Origin: Escherichia coli
GTDB taxonomy: Bacteria; Pseudomonadota; Gammaproteobacteria; Enterobacterales; Enterobacteriaceae
Reading direction: 5' to 3' (one strand)
Length of the DNA stretch: 64,000 nucleotides
Assembly (NCBI RefSeq): GCF_017348835.2
Contig: NZ_CP071375.1
Translations under genes and position numbers: made by a program
Notes under the pieces: generated by a model
What the model was told of the DNA's origin: nothing
What the model saw: only the letters and a program-made list of their open reading frames with translations
Databases searched by the model: none
Shown here: piece by piece, positions 1-9,382 of the stretch
How positions within the stretch are numbered: position 1 is the first letter of the stretch
How the letters are laid out: each line of letters begins with the position of its first letter

Positions 1-1050
<1,050 letters not shown>

Positions 1051-1274
1051 AATTTATATTCCCGGGAATTCATCATGATTATCAAAACGTTAAAAATGAG
1101 CGCACGAAAGCGAAATTGATGAAACGTTCGCTCACTATTTACCAGGTAAATTTATGGGATTGTAGCGTAAAAAAAGACAATTTCGCAGTCTTGCGCTGCA
1201 TTGATTAGTGCGTATGATAGCGTCACTGGAGTTGCGCTCTTACCCTTATAGCCATTAACCCCAGGAATCCGCAC

Positions 1275-2318
1275 ATGCGTATTGAAGAAGATCTGAAGTT
1301 AGGTTTTAAAGACGTTCTCATCCGCCCTAAACGCTCCACTCTTAAAAGCCGTTCCGATGTTGAACTGGAACGTCAATTCACCTTCAAACATTCAGGTCAG
1401 AGCTGGTCCGGCGTGCCGATTATCGCCGCAAATATGGACACCGTAGGCACATTTTCTATGGCCTCTGCGCTGGCTTCTTTTGATATTTTGACTGCTGTGC
1501 ATAAACACTATTCTGTCGAAGAGTGGCAAGCGTTTATCAACAATTCTTCCGCTGATGTGCTGAAACATGTGATGGTTTCTACCGGTACGTCAAATGCGGA
1601 TTTCGAAAAAACTAAACAGATTCTCGACCTGAACCCGGCATTAAATTTCGTTTGTATTGACGTGGCGAATGGTTATTCCGAACACTTCGTGCAGTTCGTT
1701 GCGAAAGCGCGTGAAGCGTGGCCAACCAAAACCATTTGTGCTGGCAACGTAGTGACTGGTGAAATGTGTGAGGAGCTTATCCTCTCCGGTGCCGATATCG
1801 TTAAAGTTGGCATTGGCCCAGGTTCTGTTTGTACAACTCGTGTCAAAACAGGCGTCGGTTATCCGCAACTTTCTGCGGTAATCGAATGTGCCGATGCTGC
1901 GCACGGTCTGGGCGGAATGATCGTCAGCGATGGTGGCTGCACCACGCCGGGCGATGTCGCGAAAGCTTTTGGCGGCGGTGCCGATTTCGTCATGCTTGGC
2001 GGCATGCTGGCGGGCCACGAAGAGAGCGGCGGTCGCATCGTTGAGGAGAACGGCGAGAAATTTATGCTGTTCTACGGCATGAGCTCCGAGTCTGCGATGA
2101 AACGTCACGTTGGCGGCGTTGCGGAATATCGCGCAGCAGAAGGTAAAACCGTTAAGCTGCCGCTGCGAGGCCCGGTTGAAAATACCGCGCGTGATATTTT
2201 GGGCGGCCTGCGTTCAGCTTGTACATACGTTGGGGCTTCACGCCTGAAAGAGTTGACCAAGCGCACCACGTTTATTCGTGTGCTGGAACAAGAAAACCGC
2301 ATCTTCAACAACCTGTAA
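1275..2318 (+). CDS. guaC: GMP reductase
   Basis: 347-aa ORF; IMPDH/GMPR TIM-barrel signature ([11 protein letters not shown]). Confidence 0.95.
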
Positions 2319-2325
2319 TCTCCCA

Positions 2326-2355
2326 ACGCTGGCGTGGAGCAACACGCCAGCGTTA
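2326..2355. terminator. perfect 12-bp stem hairpin between convergent guaC and hofC
   Basis: aacgctggcgtg-gagcaa-cacgccagcgtt; no clear U-tract on either side. Confidence 0.5.
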
Positions 2356-3555
2356 TCCCATCCCACTCATCGCATCGCCTAAATGGAAAATTGGCAGATA
2401 CATCGCCACCACCAGCGTACCGATAATTCCTCCCGTTATGATCAGCAACGCCGGTTCCAGTAAGGCTGCTAGGTTATCCGCCAGCGCCATTGTGTTATCC
2501 CGATGATGATGGGCGAGGTTGTCTAACATGAGATCCAGCAAGCCGGAGGCCTCTCCCGTTCTCACTAATTGCAAACAGAGCGGGCTAAACTCACCGGCAT
2601 TTTTTAGCGCCAGCCAGATGGGATGACCGTTACTGATATCGTGCTGGATTTGTGTCAGAAGTTGCACCCAGTACGGGCAGCGCATTGTTTCTCTGACGCT
2701 CTCTACGCCCTGTAAAAAAGTAATGCCTGCACTTTGAGTCAGCGCCAGAATCGTAAAGATCTGCGTGAGTTTTTGTCCCCGCATCAGTGAACCCATAATC
2801 GGGATGCGTAACAGCAATTTCTGCCGCGCGATAAGCCAGGTCGGGCGGCGCATCAGCAACTTATTGGCTATCGTCAGCAGAAAGCCGAACAACACCAGCA
2901 GCCAGCCCCATTCGCCACTAAAGTCTGCCAGCGTCATGATCCCCTGCGTTAGTGCCGGTAGTGGGGTGTTGAAGGTCTTATAGATAGCGGCAAACTCCGG
3001 CAGAACAAAATGCAGCATTGCCACAACCACCATGATTGCCATCGCTAAAATGATGATGGGATAACGTAACGCTGATTTCACTTTGTCGGTCAACTGACGC
3101 TGGGCTTTTTGCTGACGCGCCAGTTCAAAGCAGCATTCATCCAGCTTACCGGTCAGTTCACCCGTGCGGATCATCGCCTGATAGAGCGGCGGAAATACCT
3201 CTGACCAGGGTAATAAGGCATTGGAAAAAGCAATGCCCTGTTCGAGATCGTGCGCCAGCGATTGCAGCAACGCTTGCCATTGCTTACTGGGATGCTGTTC
3301 CGCCAGCAGTGCCAGCCCTTCAGAAAGCGTTAACCCGGCTTTAAGTAGCGTCGCCAGTTGATGAATGACTTCCGCGCTTTTATCTCCTCGCCACTGCGCA
3401 GAATTGATAGCAATTCGCTTCAGGCTTAGTGGAGTAACCATCTGTTGCTGTAGTGCCATGAGCAGCAAAGCACGGCTCTCTGCCCATAGCATCCCATCTT
3501 GCGCATTGCCGTCGCCGGTTATGCCATGCCAGCGCCAGAGTTGCTTACTCGCCAT
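2353..3555 (-). CDS. hofC: type IV pilus assembly inner-membrane platform protein (PilC/GspF family)
   Basis: 400-aa ORF, ATG at 3553-3555; polytopic membrane protein; stop of hofB overlaps. Confidence 0.9.
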   Translation of the reverse strand: MASKQLWRWHGITGDGNAQDGMLWAESRALLLMALQQQMVTPLSLKRIAINSAQWRGDKSAEVIHQLATLLKAGLTLSEGLALLAEQHPSKQWQALLQSLAHDLEQGIAFSNALLPWSEVFPPLYQAMIRTGELTGKLDECCFELARQQKAQRQLTDKVKSALRYPIIILAMAIMVVVAMLHFVLPEFAAIYKTFNTPLPALTQGIMTLADFSGEWGWLLVLFGFLLTIANKLLMRRPTWLIARQKLLLRIPIMGSLMRGQKLTQIFTILALTQSAGITFLQGVESVRETMRCPYWVQLLTQIQHDISNGHPIWLALKNAGEFSPLCLQLVRTGEASGLLDLMLDNLAHHHRDNTMALADNLAALLEPALLIITGGIIGTLVVAMYLPIFHLGDAMSGMG

Positions 3556-4930
3556 GCGGCATCCCCAATACGCGGATTAACTCTTCAAAGGTGGTTAAGC
3601 CTTGCTCCACGGCCAGGCAGCCGTTTTCAAAAAGCGTTCGCATACCCGCCTGTCGGGCGTGCGTTTCCAGCGATTCAACTTCAGTATTAGAGGAAATAAG
3701 CTGGCGTATGGCTGGTGTAATGGGCAGGACTTCAAACAAGGCGGTACGACCATAAAAACCGTGGTAGCAATGTACACAACCGGGTGCCTGCCAGTGGGGC
3801 AGCGGCGACGGCCATACATTGTCTGGAATATGGATGGGCTCCCCTTGCTGTCGGCGACAATGCGGGCAAAGTTTGCGTACCAGACGCTGGGCTATTACCA
3901 GCGTAAGCGCTGATGAGAGCATCCAGCGAGCAACGCCCATTTGCTGTAAACGTACCAGCGTTTCAGTGGTGGAATTGGTGTGTAGCGTGGACAACACCAG
4001 GTGACCGGTTTGCGCGGCTTTAATGGCAATTTCTGCCGTTTCGCCATCGCGGATCTCTCCGATCATGATGACGTCAGGGTCCTGGCGCAATAACGCACGC
4101 AAAACGCCCTGAAAGGTGAGTCCGGCACGCGGATGGATTTGTGTCTGGTTTAGTCCGGCTATGGGGATCTCAACCGGATCTTCGACGCTACAAATATTAA
4201 TGTCAGCGGTATTCAGCGTTTGCAGGGCACTATAAAGCGTGACCGTTTTGCCGCTGCCGGTAGGGCCAGTTACCAGCACCAGTCCCTGTGGTTGTTGCAA
4301 GGCATGAGCAAAGTCCGCCAGTTGTAACGGCTGCATTCCCAGCGTGTTAACATCCAGTGCCTGGCTCACCTGCTGTAACAACCTTAATACCACCTTTTCA
4401 CCACCCCGACATGGTAAGGTCGCAATACGAAATGAGACGGCGTTTCCTGCCAGTTCGACAGTGAATTGCCCGTCCTGCGGCAGGCGATGTTCCGCAATAT
4501 CCAGGTTTCCCAGCACTTTTAATCTGGCGGTTAATGTGACTCCGGCATCCGGTGAAACATCCGGTAAAGGATGCAATACGCCGTCGATACGCAAGCGGAT
4601 GCGGTAGGCATTGTCCGCTGGTTCGATATGAATATCAGACGCGCGTTGTTCCAGCGCAGATTGTAACGTTCGAGTCAGCAACTCTGCTTTGGGCTGATGC
4701 TTCTCCTGAACAGCTACGGGCAATGTCTGTTGTGTGCGACTGGCGTGACCTTCCATTTGTTGGCGCGTCCAGCAGGTGATCTCAATACGTTTGGTGGTAG
4801 CGAAATGCAATGCGTCCAGCAATTCATGTGAGGGGGCATCGACCACCGCAACATGAACCACTTCTTCGCTGGCATCCAGCAAGACTCCCTGATAACGCAG
4901 ACACAGGGCGGTGAGCTGTGGAATATTCAT
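3545..4930 (-). CDS. hofB: type IV pilus assembly ATPase (PilB/GspE family)
   Basis: 461-aa ORF; Walker A GPTGSGKT, CxxC tetracysteine motif; ATG at 4928-4930. Confidence 0.9.
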   Translation of the reverse strand: MNIPQLTALCLRYQGVLLDASEEVVHVAVVDAPSHELLDALHFATTKRIEITCWTRQQMEGHASRTQQTLPVAVQEKHQPKAELLTRTLQSALEQRASDIHIEPADNAYRIRLRIDGVLHPLPDVSPDAGVTLTARLKVLGNLDIAEHRLPQDGQFTVELAGNAVSFRIATLPCRGGEKVVLRLLQQVSQALDVNTLGMQPLQLADFAHALQQPQGLVLVTGPTGSGKTVTLYSALQTLNTADINICSVEDPVEIPIAGLNQTQIHPRAGLTFQGVLRALLRQDPDVIMIGEIRDGETAEIAIKAAQTGHLVLSTLHTNSTTETLVRLQQMGVARWMLSSALTLVIAQRLVRKLCPHCRRQQGEPIHIPDNVWPSPLPHWQAPGCVHCYHGFYGRTALFEVLPITPAIRQLISSNTEVESLETHARQAGMRTLFENGCLAVEQGLTTFEELIRVLGMPHGE

Positions 4931-4939
4931 TGCCGCTCC

Positions 4940-5380
4940 TTAGTTGGCGTCATCAAAGCGGAAGACATCTTCGCAGGCTTGCTGCAATGCGCTGTCACTT
5001 TGAATATTGCAGTTGCGCGTCCAGCCGGTGACGCCGTTTGCGTTATCCCAACCCGGTGTCATGACGACGCTTAGTCCATTGAGACTTTCTTGCCCGGTCA
5101 GCGACACCACGCCTTTTGCCACACTCATGGCTGAAACATAGCGGGTGGTGGTAGGCGAGGGAATGCCATTGCTGCCACCGTCGCAGGTATCTAATCCACC
5201 ATGTTCCAGCGCGCACAACTCTACGGCGGTACGGTAAGGCACAAAGGTTTGTAGCATGTCGGTGAGTGCGGCTTTGCGCAGGTAGTTTTGATAAGCGGGA
5301 ATACCAATGGCGCTTAAAATGGCAATGATGCCAATAACCACCATCAGTTCGATAAGTGTAAAACCGCGTTGCTTGTCCAT
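4940..5380 (-). CDS. ppdD: type IV prepilin (major pilin)
   Basis: 146-aa ORF; prepilin leader and N-methylation motif MDKQRGFTLIELMVVIGIIAIL. Confidence 0.9.
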   Translation of the reverse strand: MDKQRGFTLIELMVVIGIIAILSAIGIPAYQNYLRKAALTDMLQTFVPYRTAVELCALEHGGLDTCDGGSNGIPSPTTTRYVSAMSVAKGVVSLTGQESLNGLSVVMTPGWDNANGVTGWTRNCNIQSDSALQQACEDVFRFDDAN

Positions 5381-5582
5381 CTGTTTCGCTCCTTGATTGG
5401 GTTGGCGCTACTTTGGCAAACGCCATCAGCACAAGCGAGGGGCAAAAAAAGAAACGGGAAAGCAGCTTCCGAGGTTTTTTATTCCGTTGCAGCGAAAGAC
5501 AAGAAATTTGCGAGGCGTTACGAAGAAAGTTGGGGAAGGGGTGATTATCCGCCCACTATGGAGCGGATAAATCTGTCAGCAA

Positions 5583-6536
<954 letters not shown>

Positions 6537-6563
6537 TTAGCACCACATATAAGGAGATCCTGC

Positions 6564-7115
6564 ATGTTGTTAGAACAGGGGTGGCTGGTTGGCGCGCGCC
6601 GCGTTCCCTCACCACATTACGATTGCCGCCCGGATGACGAAACACCCACCCTGCTGGTGGTGCACAATATTAGCCTGCCGCCAGGCGAGTTTGGCGGTCC
6701 GTGGATCGACGCATTATTCACTGGAACTATTGATCCGCAGGCACATCCTTTCTTTGCTGAGATCGCCCATTTGCGCGTCTCCGCTCACTGTTTGATTCGC
6801 CGTGATGGTGAAATAGTCCAGTATGTTCCTTTCGATAAACGTGCCTGGCATGCGGGAGTCTCTCAGTATCAGGGGCGCGAACGCTGCAATGATTTTTCTA
6901 TTGGGATTGAGCTTGAAGGCACCGATACGCTGGCGTATACCGATGCGCAGTATCAACAGCTTGCGGCGGTTACGCGGGCACTGATTGATCGCTATCCAGA
7001 TATCGCTAATAACATGACGGGCCATTGTGATATTGCGCCGGATCGGAAAACCGATCCCGGCCCTGCATTTGATTGGGCACGGTTTCGTGCGCTGGTCAGC
7101 AAGGAGACAACATGA
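6564..7115 (+). CDS. ampD: anhydro-N-acetylmuramyl-L-alanine amidase
   Basis: 183-aa ORF; SD aaggag 6551-6556; amidase_2 family. Confidence 0.95.
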
Positions 7116-7966
7116 CGCTATTTACAACCTTACTGGTGTTAATTTTCGAGCGCCTGTTTAAGTTGGGCGAGCACTGGCAGCTTGATCATCGTCTTGAAGC
7201 GTTCTTTCGGCGGGTGAAACATTTTTCTCTCGGGCGCACGTTAGGCATGACCATTATTGCGATGGGCGTGACTTTTTTACTGTTACGCGCATTGCAGGGA
7301 GTATTGTTCAACGTTCCCACGCTGCTGGTGTGGCTGCTGATTGGTTTGCTGTGTATTGGCGCAGGTAAAGTTCGTCTTCATTATCATGCTTATCTGACAG
7401 CTGCTTCACGTAATGATAGCCATGCCCGTGCCACGATGGCTGGCGAACTCACCATGATTCACGGCGTCCCGGCAGGCTGCGACGAACGTGAGTATTTGCG
7501 TGAGCTGCAAAATGCATTGCTGTGGATTAACTTTCGTTTTTATCTTGCACCGCTGTTCTGGCTGATTGTGGGGGGAACCTGGGGACCCGTTACGCTGATG
7601 GGGTATGCGTTCTTGCGTGCATGGCAATACTGGCTGGCGCGATACCAGACGCCGCATCATCGTTTACAGTCCGGCATTGATGCCGTGCTTCATGTACTGG
7701 ATTGGGTGCCGGTTCGTCTTGCGGGGGTGGTATATGCCTTGATCGGTCATGGTGAGAAAGCGTTACCGGCCTGGTTTGCTTCGCTGGGTGATTTCCATAC
7801 TTCGCAATATCAGGTATTAACGCGTCTGGCGCAGTTCTCTCTGGCGCGTGAACCGCATGTCGATAAGGTGGAGACGCCGAAGGCAGCGGTTTCAATGGCG
7901 AAGAAAACCTCGTTCGTGGTCGTGGTGGTGATTGCGCTACTGACGATTTACGGGGCGTTGGTGTAA
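7112..7966 (+). CDS. ampE: inner membrane protein AmpE
   Basis: ATG at 7112 overlaps ampD stop (ATGA); reads [16 protein letters not shown]...; ORF track start 7073 is upstream in-frame. Confidence 0.9.
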
Positions 7967-7974
7967 AGATTATT

Positions 7975-7999
7975 GCCCTCACCCTGTACGGGTGAGGGC
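7975..7999. terminator. GC-rich hairpin between convergent ampE and aroP
   Basis: gccctcaccc-tgtac-gggtgagggc; same ccctcaccc/gggtgaggg unit recurs at 52362-52395. Confidence 0.6.
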
Positions 8000-8008
8000 G
8001 TAGAGAGA

Positions 8009-9382
8009 TTAATGCGCTTTTACGGCTTTGGCGGTTTTCTCTTTAAACAGATAGCCGATACCTAACACGATCAGCCATACCGGGATCAGGTATACCGAAA
8101 TCGCCATTCCTGGGGTCATCAGCATAATCACCAGTACCGCCGCCATAAACAGCAGGCAGATCCAGTTACCCAGCGGATAAAGCAGAGCAGGGAAGCGAGT
8201 TACCACGCCTTGTTCCTGCTTGGCGCGGCGGAATTTCATATGCGCCAGGCTAATCATCGCCCAGTTGATCACCAGTGCAGATACCACCAGCGCCATTAAC
8301 AGGCCAAATGCGGATTCCGGAGCAAGATAGTTAATCAGTACGCACAATGCCGTTACCAGTGCAGACACCAGAATGGTGTTAACCGGTACGCCGCGTTTAT
8401 CGACAGACGCCAGCGCTTTTGGCGCGTTACCCTGTTGTGCCAGACCAAACAGCATACGGCTGTTGCAATATACGCAGCTGTTGTACACGGAGAGCGCCGC
8501 AGTCAGTACCACGATGTTCAGCGCATTCGCCACAAAGGTATCGCCTAACTCGTGGAAGATCAGCACAAACGGACTGGTATCGGCGGTAACGCGGGTCCAC
8601 GGCATCAGTGAGAGCAGAACGGCTAACGAACCAATATAGAAAATCAGGATGCGGTAGATAACCTGGTTAGTTGCTTTCGGGATACTTTGCTCCGGGTTAT
8701 CAGCTTCTGCTGCGGTGATCCCCACCAGTTCCAGACCACCGAACGAGAACATGATAATCGCCATCATCATCACCAGCCCGGTGAAGCCGTGCGGCAGGAA
8801 ACCGCCCTGATCCCACAGGTTGCTAACGCTTGCCTGCGGACCGCCGTTACCACTGAACAGCAGCCAGCCGCCGAAGATGATCATCGCTACTACCGCAATA
8901 ACTTTGATAATGGCAAACCAGAACTCCATCTCACCAAACACTTTTACGTTGGTCAGGTTGATGGCGTTAATCACCACAAAGAACACGGCGGCAGAAACCC
9001 AGGTTGGGATTTCCGGATACCAGAACTGAATGTATTTACCCACAGCAGTCAGCTCTGCCATGGCAACTAAAACGTACAGTACCCAGTAGTTCCAGCCAGA
9101 AGCGAAGCCAGCAAAGCTGCCCCAGTATTTATAAGCAAAGTGGCTAAAGGAGCCTGCGACAGGTTCTTCGACCACCATTTCACCCAGCTGACGCATGATC
9201 AGAAAGGCGATAAAACCAGCAATGGCGTAACCCAGGATAATCCCTGGCCCTGCGGACTGTATTACGGAGGCGCTACCCAGGAATAACCCGGTCCCTATCG
9301 CGCCACCCAGCGCGATAAGCTGAATATGGCGGTTTTTAAGGCCGCGCTTTAGCTGCTCGCCGTGCTGTTGACCTTCCATCAT
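8009..9382 (-). CDS. aroP: aromatic amino acid:H+ symporter (APC family)
   Basis: 457-aa ORF MMEGQQHGEQLKRGLKNRHIQLIALGGAIGTGLF; 12-TM permease. Confidence 0.95.
   Translation of the reverse strand: MMEGQQHGEQLKRGLKNRHIQLIALGGAIGTGLFLGSASVIQSAGPGIILGYAIAGFIAFLIMRQLGEMVVEEPVAGSFSHFAYKYWGSFAGFASGWNYWVLYVLVAMAELTAVGKYIQFWYPEIPTWVSAAVFFVVINAINLTNVKVFGEMEFWFAIIKVIAVVAMIIFGGWLLFSGNGGPQASVSNLWDQGGFLPHGFTGLVMMMAIIMFSFGGLELVGITAAEADNPEQSIPKATNQVIYRILIFYIGSLAVLLSLMPWTRVTADTSPFVLIFHELGDTFVANALNIVVLTAALSVYNSCVYCNSRMLFGLAQQGNAPKALASVDKRGVPVNTILVSALVTALCVLINYLAPESAFGLLMALVVSALVINWAMISLAHMKFRRAKQEQGVVTRFPALLYPLGNWICLLFMAAVLVIMLMTPGMAISVYLIPVWLIVLGIGYLFKEKTAKAVKAH

Follow-up and report, generated by a model that had tools for sequence, protein, structure and literature searches.

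Several described systems resemble the ppdD-hofB-hofC locus, and they differ from it in instructive ways. The pilABCD operon of Haemophilus influenzae likewise encodes a pilin, a PilB-type ATPase and a PilC-type platform protein in this order and is under CRP-S and Sxy control (PMC1635313). By contrast with the E. coli operon, which contains no peptidase gene, it also holds the prepilin peptidase gene pilD, and H. influenzae takes up DNA by natural transformation, whereas in E. coli uptake is limited to traces (PMC3330819). The PilA-PilB-PilC core of Pseudomonas, Myxococcus and Neisseria has a homologous pilin N-terminus, ATPase and platform, but PpdD is short (140 aa when mature) and falls into a PpdD-specific group of enterobacterial pilins (PMC11046646), and the E. 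coli system, unlike these type IVa pili, is silent in culture. The GspE, GspF and GspG proteins of type II secretion have ancestry and fold in common with the operon proteins, and the HMMs of the two systems cross-match; however, type II secretion makes a periplasmic pseudopilus, whereas the PpdD product is a true pilus (6gv9).

We analyzed a 64-kb stretch of the E. coli PE164 genome (hereafter the window) for the identity, integrity, selection and synteny of these genes and for the presence and conservation of a CRP-S site. The region is very probably the chromosomal ppdD-hofB-hofC (hcpABC) operon, which encodes core parts of a type IVa pilus under Sxy/CRP-S control (Table 1). It agrees with K-12 ppdD-hofB-hofC and EHEC hcpABC in locus, gene order, gene lengths, junctions and CRP-S site, and the differences are allelic only.

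Table 1. Features of the ppdD-hofB-hofC locus and its flanks in the window.
Feature	Position	Strand	Remarks
ppdD (hcpA), type IVa major prepilin	4940..5380	-	146 aa; NF007862, N_methyl and PDB match
hofB (hcpB; PGAP label 'gspE'), PilB/GspE-family assembly ATPase	3545..4930	-	461 aa; NF007755, T2SSE, MshEN and structure matches
hofC (hcpC), PilC/GspF-family inner-membrane platform protein	2353..3555	-	400 aa; two T2SSF domains
hofB/hofC overlap	3545..3555	-	11 nt shared by hofB stop and hofC ATG
hofB Shine-Dalgarno AAGGAG	4936..4941	-	Overlaps ppdD stop; 5 nt before hofB ATG; sequence ACTAAGGAGCGGCAATG
ppdD Shine-Dalgarno AAGGAG	5389..5394	-	
nadC-ppdD intergenic/operon regulatory region	5381..5582	-	202 bp; nadC stop at 5583
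CRP-S site ATTTGCGAGGCGTTACGAAGAA (plus strand)	5506..5527	.	Core 5509-5524; C at position 6, G at position 17
Block CTGCAAC	5486..5492	-	16 nt downstream of CRP-S core; also in Yersinia, Serratia, Dickeya, Tatumella
Block GGAAG..TTTCC	5470-5457	-	Conserved, terminator-like look
Block T-run + GCCCCTCGC	5450-5435	-	Conserved, terminator-like look
Block TGCCAAAGT, pattern TGnCAnAGT	5410..5418	-	T, G, C, A and T invariant in 16 Enterobacteriaceae sequences
Stable hairpin ATCCGC..GCGGAT just 3' of nadC stop	5547..5568	-	-15 kcal/mol, z -4.7
Perfect 12-bp inverted repeat between convergent guaC and hofC	2325..2354	.	-23 kcal/mol on both strands, z -5.0 and -7.4

The ORF list contained the three genes as minus-strand frames in the order ppdD, hofB, hofC, with no frameshift or internal stop in any of them, and their lengths equaled those in the RefSeq annotation of K-12, O157:H7 and seven other strains. 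A 9-nt spacer (4931-4939) separates the ppdD stop from the hofB ATG, hofB and hofC are probably translationally coupled, and all three genes probably lie on a single transcript. The initial annotation had described full-length frames with tight or overlapping junctions and a gap of about 200 bp between nadC and ppdD; the ORF coordinates, the junction sequences and the measured length of the gap all agree with this description. The hairpin downstream of nadC is likely to be the end of the nadC transcript, and other genera carry a GC hairpin, or a hairpin followed by a T-run, at the matching position. At the opposite end, the inverted repeat adjoins the hofC stop codon, lacks a T-run on either side and is likely to form the 3' end structure of the guaC and hofC transcripts.

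The identities proposed by the initial annotation (prepilin, assembly ATPase and platform protein) held throughout: all three proteins scored far above the cut-offs of their NCBIfam equivalog models, and the structure matches agreed. The PpdD protein begins MDKQRGFTLIELM and scored 269 bits against NF007862 (cut-off 138), while also passing the cut-offs of TIGR02532 and PF07963. It has the class III signal of a prepilin, a short basic leader of 6 residues (MDKQRG|FTLIELMVVIGIIAILSAIG) ending in Gly-1, followed by Phe+1, Glu+5 and a hydrophobic alpha1-N helix, with FTLIEL at the mature N-terminus; four Cys are found at 56, 66, 124 and 136. PpdD of PE164 is identical to K-12 WP_000360904.1 and differs by one residue from the EHEC type IV pilus pilin (PDB 6gv9/6gms), the pilus whose structure was determined by cryo-EM in 6GV9. 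PpdD of PE164 may likewise polymerize into a pilus fiber.

HofB combines a T2SSE domain with Walker A, Walker B/Asp box, His box and tetracysteine Zn motifs, as expected of a PilB-type ATPase; the motifs read GPTGSGKT (222), VIMIGEIRD (287) and VLSTLHT (312), with CPHC (355) and CVHC (385) forming the tetracysteine motif. It scored 824 bits against NF007755 (an NCBIfam equivalog labelled GspE, cut-off 617), 489 bits against PF00437 and 489 bits against the generic PilB equivalog TIGR02538, the last being under the cut-off of 675.65. HofB is devoid of the longer N-terminal region of PilB, the TIGR02538 match beginning at profile position 167, and it matched PilB/GspE structures with E about 1e-105. 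HofC is a polytopic membrane protein with two T2SSF repeats, the architecture of a PilC-type platform; it scored 659 bits against the NCBIfam equivalog NF007861 (cut-off 401) and 189 bits over two stretches against PF00482, and matched PilC 3jc8 with E 3e-43.

The initial annotation had assumed a dedicated promoter upstream of ppdD, and had suggested that a CRP-S site be sought in the intergenic region and that expression be checked under Sxy/CRP conditions. We defined a CRP-S site as a 22-bp CRP site with C6/G17 and the core TGCGA-N6-TCGCA lying upstream of the operon. The site found at 5506-5527 matches 8 of the 10 core positions, with the CRP-S base present in each half; K-12 has the identical site, and it did not vary among 10 E. 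coli strains. Because the window contains 25 matches to the CRP-S pattern when 45 are expected, a match is not significant on sequence alone and by itself provides no evidence. At the same position, 17 of 24 other Enterobacterales loci have a match of at least 8/10, against 0.19 expected. The assumed promoter region thus contains a CRP-S site conserved by position across genera. The PE164 site differs in its setting from that of the H. influenzae operon: its center is 136 nt upstream of the ppdD start codon, and further conserved blocks occupy the stretch between the two.

For CRP binding, Sxy induction, pilin production, DNA uptake and pilus structure we draw on published work. The suggested expression check proved to be already in print. 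Cameron & Redfield (2006) showed by EMSA that CRP binds a ppdD promoter fragment (PMC1635313), and 5506-5527 falls within that fragment, bounded by primers ppdDF/ppdDR. The operon was induced 90-fold in a manner dependent on Sxy, CRP and cAMP, and was also subject to catabolite repression; these dependences were established for the K-12 allele, whose CRP-S site is identical to that of PE164 (PMC1635313). Activation at CRP-S sites needs AR1 of CRP but not AR2 and involves contact between Sxy and CRP (PMC6728893). Sxy induction leads to processed PpdD and, with lambda Red, to hofQ-dependent transformation/DNA uptake, the measured E. coli uptake being very low (PMC3330819), and EHEC makes HCP pili on Minca medium (PMC2920817). 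The label 'cryptic', applied to the operon by the initial annotation, is therefore apt in that the operon is normally silent, but not in view of the PpdD and DNA uptake obtained by Sxy induction or of the EHEC pili.

Between the CRP-S site and the ppdD start codon there are four more conserved blocks of non-coding sequence, which are kept across Enterobacteriaceae genera although the surrounding intergenic DNA has diverged beyond alignment. The block at 5410..5418 is a candidate extended -10 element, which would place the transcription start near 5403, and the blocks in 5435..5470 are possibly an UP-element or a protein-binding site. With 5410..5418 as the extended -10, the CRP-S site would be near -113.5, an unusually large distance for class I activation. 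A scan of 2100-5800 for consensus sigma-70 promoters returned 0 sites (2.6 expected), and no mapped transcription start of the ppdD operon was found in the papers covered. The fold of the whole intergenic RNA gave z 0.04 and Rfam gave no match at E<=1 over 1000-7200; neither result points to a structured leader or an sRNA. A terminator/attenuator suggested by a scan match at 5455-5471 was rejected on its folding (-7 kcal/mol, z 0.05). By eye, the blocks did not fit sigma-54, sigma-E, sigma-32, second CRP, FNR, LexA, ArgR or PurR sites in spacing or sequence, and a likeness to CTGCAAC-GGAAT-AAAAAA upstream of hofM was discarded as uninformative, the stretch being part of the coding sequence of mrcA. 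Two promoter-region bases, at 5450 and 5484, carry changes private to PE164. It is a rather unlikely idea that the ppdD promoter is more than a simple class I CRP-S promoter and that the blocks between the CRP-S site and the candidate -10 are sites of an extra factor or a DNA-bending architecture. If true, an extra promoter requirement could account for the silence of the operon and for its elusive natural inducing conditions.

Could the cluster instead be an unused relic, intact by chance and drifting toward pseudogenes? Its expression is undetectable in standard conditions, natural transformation of E. coli has never been observed (PMC3330819), and its dN/dS is 4-9 times that of the neighboring housekeeping genes guaC and nadC (0.023). 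However, mean pairwise dN/dS among 10 sampled E. coli strains was 0.12 for hofC, 0.08 for hofB and 0.21 for ppdD, far under 1, indicating that the three genes are under purifying selection; all three were intact and unchanged in length in 10/10 of these strains, and 5423 of 5426 complete E. coli genomes carried at least 80% of the locus. The order ampD-nadC-ppdD-hofB-hofC-guaC was kept in about 24 sampled Enterobacterales loci, the regulatory site persists across the order despite intergenic DNA that is otherwise unalignable, and the catalytic motifs are intact, all of which makes a relic extremely improbable. The maintained function that the initial annotation had read from the intact frames thus gains support from selection and near-universal presence. 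HofB and HofC each have 8 residue differences from K-12. Mosaic patches of divergent, mostly synonymous sequence occur in the 3' third of hofB, with a 100% identity match in only 2 of 5426 genomes; an E. albertii origin of the divergent patch was rejected, since the K-12 sequence is at least as close to E. albertii as the patch.

The names in databases invite another reading, in which HofB and HofC are type II secretion parts and PpdD is a pseudopilin: PGAP calls HofB 'type II secretion system protein GspE', RefSeq lists 'protein transport protein HofC', both proteins also match GspE and GspF models, and, according to literature cited in PMC2649431, the Klebsiella Pul secreton can assemble PpdD. 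Yet both equivalog cut-offs were missed (GspE TIGR02533, 458 against 630; GspF TIGR02120, 265 against 424) whereas the HofB- and HofC-specific models were passed, and HofB matches PilB (489 bits) better than GspE. PpdD forms a type IVa pilus of solved structure, the secretin partner HofQ is required for DNA uptake, and the neighbors are nadC and guaC rather than genes for GspD, GspC, GspG-K, GspL and GspM, as a gsp operon would have, so we regard this reading as very unlikely. We know of no substrate secreted by HofB/HofC. A different question is whether the same machine was selected as an adhesive or virulence pilus ('hemorrhagic coli pilus') for host colonization and not for DNA uptake. EHEC EDL933 produces PpdD/HcpA pili on Minca medium, UPEC hofQ mutants have a kidney colonization defect at day 7 (PMC2649431), and PE164 is a pig isolate, from diarrhea and blood. 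On the other hand, the operon is core in commensal and laboratory strains too, for a surface antigen PpdD shows unusually high conservation (identity of 78-95% between Enterobacteriaceae genera; dN/dS 0.21), and control runs via the competence co-activator Sxy. We consider an adhesive role possible, if doubtful; it is compatible with, and does not exclude, a Sxy-controlled type IVa pilus operon, whose physiological role may be DNA uptake or adhesion.

On our preferred reading of a Sxy-controlled type IVa pilus operon, transcription is off in ordinary culture and would be switched on when cAMP-CRP and its co-activator Sxy (TfoX) act at the weak CRP-S site through a class I-like mechanism, giving one transcript from the nadC-ppdD gap on which hofB and hofC would be translationally coupled. 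A prepilin peptidase encoded elsewhere would remove the 6-residue leader of PpdD and methylate Phe+1, HofB would act as a hexameric PilB-type ATPase driving extension and HofC as the PilC-type platform in the inner membrane. The operon alone would not suffice for a pilus, which would need the unlinked hofMNOPQ genes (alignment complex and secretin) as well as the minor pilins of the ppdAB-ygdB-ppdC cluster and the peptidase of gspO/pppA; a reconstitution design (bioRxiv 10.1101/856302) names all the gene clusters that are needed. No prepilin peptidase, secretin, PilMNOP alignment complex or minor pilins were found within the 64-kb window. Since 5425 of the 5426 complete E. coli genomes contain the hofMNOPQ partner cluster, PE164 almost certainly has it too. 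The assembled fiber may support DNA uptake at a low level, and also adhesion in some pathotypes.

Published work already describes the operon, its control by Sxy and CRP-S, the structure of the pilus and a reconstituted system for its assembly, so the finding is correct but not new, and within the window the locus has value as a correctly recognized landmark and little as a discovery. What our analysis adds is population-scale support that ppdD, hofB and hofC are core and under purifying selection, together with a CRP-S site placed at exact coordinates and backed across genera. The uncharacterized core promoter and the conserved upstream blocks bear on the old question of when E. coli turns this system on.

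Three consecutive frames on the minus strand, encoding the major prepilin PpdD, the PilB-type ATPase HofB and the PilC-type platform protein HofC, were found in the ORF list of positions 1-8500, and the frames, coordinates, junctions and nadC gap described in the initial annotation were borne out in each detail. With the stop codon of nadC at 5583, the nadC-ppdD gap (5381-5582) measures 202 bp. A 9-nt spacer separates the ppdD stop from the hofB ATG, the hofB Shine-Dalgarno sequence (AAGGAG) shares bases with the ppdD stop codon, and the hofC ATG overlaps the hofB stop by 11 nt; from these junctions we infer that translation of hofB and hofC is coupled to that of the preceding gene.

Features of the ppdD-hofB-hofC operon and its flanking gaps
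Feature	Position	Strand	Description
ppdD	4940-5380	minus	146 aa, N-terminus MDKQRGFTLIELMVV; ORF list of 1-8500
hofB	3545-4930	minus	461 aa; ORF list of 1-8500
hofC	2353-3555	minus	400 aa; ORF list of 1-8500
Perfect 12-bp inverted repeat	2325-2354		in 34-bp gap between convergent guaC and hofC
CTGCAAC	5492-5486	minus	conserved; present also in Yersinia, Serratia, Dickeya, Tatumella
GGAAG..TTTCC	5470-5457	minus	conserved block (alignment)
T-run + GCCCCTCGC	5450-5435	minus	conserved block (alignment)
TGnCAnAGT	5418-5410	minus	conserved block (alignment), candidate extended -10

The three products scored far above the cut-offs of their gene-specific NCBIfam equivalogs, confirming the proposed identities for this textbook locus: PpdD matched NF007862 'prepilin peptidase-dependent pilin' with 269 bits (cut-off 138), HofB matched NF007755 with 824 bits (cut-off 617) and HofC matched NF007861 'protein transport protein HofC' with 659 bits (cut-off 401). 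In Pfam, PpdD matched N_methyl, and Pilin at 21.6 bits, slightly below the 22-bit cut-off; HofB matched T2SSE and MshEN, and HofC carried two T2SSF repeats. HofB retains its Walker A (GPTGSGKT), Asp/Walker B (VIMIGEIRD) and His (VLSTLHT) boxes and a tetracysteine motif (CPHC...CVHC), and PpdD retains four cysteines. PpdD is one residue apart from PDB 6gms and from 6gv9, a cryo-EM structure of the enterohaemorrhagic E. coli (EHEC) type IV pilus. HofC matched PilC, and HofB matched both PilB and GspE ATPases (E about 1e-105). The pilus structure is reportedly that of Bardiaux et al. 2019, and the reconstitution of the machine is said to be by Luna Rico et al. 2019.

A type II secretion reading could draw on the GspE match and on the RefSeq/PGAP name of HofB, 'gspE, type II secretion system protein GspE'. 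However, HofB bears that name because NF007755 does, and the generic equivalogs GspE and GspF were matched with scores under their cut-offs, so that the label is a naming artefact; these low equivalog scores, the gene neighbourhood and the known structure of the pilus rule the reading out. For automated readers the label is a naming trap. The idea that the operon is a relic was likewise ruled out, by selection and conservation data. At least 80% of 2200-5700 was present in 5423 of 5426 complete E. coli genomes by megablast, and all three genes were annotated intact, with identical lengths, in the window and in nine strains taken evenly down the megablast ranking (including K-12, O157:H7, APEC O1 and ST38). 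Mean pairwise dN/dS (Nei-Gojobori) was 0.12 for hofC, 0.08 for hofB and 0.21 for ppdD; the genes on either side, guaC and nadC, had 0.023. Selection on the operon is thus purifying, if somewhat looser than on housekeeping genes, as opposed to neutral decay.

A HofB scan of the genome collection yielded about 24 Enterobacterales loci (among them Escherichia albertii, Citrobacter, Enterobacter, Kluyvera, Leclercia, Klebsiella, Serratia, Yersinia, Dickeya, Brenneria, Erwinia, Tatumella, Edwardsiella and Pantoea), across which the order (ampD)-nadC-ppdD-hofB-hofC-guaC is maintained. Amino acid identity across Enterobacteriaceae genera (loci L010-L030 of this comparison) was 78-95% for PpdD, 64-89% for HofB and 55-92% for HofC; PpdD thus exceeds HofB and HofC in conservation and about equals NadC, the opposite of the usual pattern for surface-exposed major pilins. 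The 64-kb window held no further type IV pilus genes, and the unlinked partner cluster hofMNOPQ occurred in 5425 of 5426 E. coli genomes. Unrelated to the type IV pilus genes are yacC (about 24284-24631), annotated 'YacC family pilotin-like protein', and a seven-gene Yad-type chaperone-usher fimbrial operon between folK and panB (about 37719-44700).

Apart from one mismatch at 22344, the window is the reverse complement of 4044273-4108272 of E. coli PE164 (NZ_CP114128.1), a strain isolated from a pig in Nanjing. The 3' third of hofB (3671-4030) is a mosaic of divergent patches, with 7-12 mostly synonymous differences per 90 nt from each other sampled E. coli, and because of these patches only 2 genomes matched the whole region at 99% or more. 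A 341-nt probe (3680-4020) reached 100% identity only in the pig isolates PE164 and F2_81; one genome matched at 97.4% and 5416 matched at 90-95%. The patch is no nearer to E. albertii than the K-12 sequence is, and E. albertii was rejected as its source; a small import by recombination, from an Escherichia lineage outside the sample, is probable.

The search for a CRP-S site (a CRP site needing the co-activator Sxy) in 5381-5582, suggested in the initial annotation, gave one at 5506-5527. The pattern TGCGA-N6-TCGCA, with up to 2 mismatches, matched at 5509-5524, and the surrounding 22-mer, ATTTGCGAGGCGTTACGAAGAA, has the CRP-S-specific C in each half-site. On sequence alone the match is uninformative, because the window held 25 matches against 45 expected. 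Support comes from its invariance in E. coli, its similar position across loci and its location inside a CRP-shifted fragment. The 22-mer is the same in K-12 and invariant across the ten strains, with 16 other intergenic positions variable. The 260 bp preceding the pilin gene were scanned in 24 other Enterobacterales loci, and in 17 of these the sole match of at least 8/10 began 138-154 nt upstream of the pilin ATG; with shuffled sequences, 0.19 loci had a match there (maximum 4). The site also falls within the fragment delimited by primers ppdDF and ppdDR, which purified CRP shifts (Cameron & Redfield 2006, PMC1635313). The proposed expression check already has a positive published answer: Sxy induced the operon 90-fold, read with a hofB amplicon; the induction had an absolute requirement for both CRP and cAMP, and glucose repressed it (PMC1635313). 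Later work showed that processed PpdD pilin is made upon Sxy induction. The operon, its CRP-S site and its control by Sxy and CRP were therefore already known, and the locus was correctly recognised.

No σ70 promoter was detected by consensus scan of 2100-5800, and the accessible literature, which leaves out some key older work, gave no mapped transcription start for the operon. Alignment of 16 Enterobacteriaceae upstream sequences revealed four conserved blocks in otherwise unalignable DNA, in addition to the CRP-S site and the Shine-Dalgarno sequence; the three nearest the CRP-S site matched no known factor site and form no stable RNA structure. A terminator-like flag on the third block was rejected, as there is no stable fold (-7 kcal/mol, z 0.05). 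The whole intergenic fold had a z of 0.04 and no Rfam family matched, so the conserved blocks probably act at the DNA level. Among ten E. coli, two bases in this region are private to the window strain: T instead of G at 5450, extending the T-run to 7, and G instead of A at 5484. The fourth block, TGCCAAAGT, agrees with an extended -10 (TG, A at -11, T at -7). If it serves as such, transcription would begin near 5403, which would put the centre of the CRP-S site at about -113.5, in the same helical phase as class I positions but more distant than the -62, -73 and -100 reported in H. influenzae. CRP-S activation requires AR1 but not AR2 of CRP and involves direct CRP-Sxy contact in a class I-like mechanism (PMC6728893). 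This putative extended -10 underlies the less likely, novel reading, in which the ppdD promoter would not be a simple class I CRP-S promoter.

In the best-supported model, one transcript would begin in the nadC-ppdD gap, requiring, according to the literature, cAMP-CRP and Sxy at 5506-5527, and would end at the strong hairpin adjoining the hofC stop codon. The inverted repeat there folds at -23 kcal/mol on both strands (z -5.0 and -7.4), with no T-run on either side. A peptidase whose gene lies outside this locus would process PpdD, and HofB and HofC, acting with HofMNOPQ and the minor pilins, would polymerise it; in a reconstitution design the complete set of required genes is hofBC, hofMNOPQ, ppdAB-ygdB-ppdC and gspO (bioRxiv 10.1101/856302). 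The same genes, as hcpABC, give the 'hemorrhagic coli pilus' of EHEC on Minca medium (PMC2920817), and UPEC hofQ mutants have a kidney persistence defect (PMC2649431). The fibre would serve DNA uptake and, in some pathotypes, may serve adhesion too.
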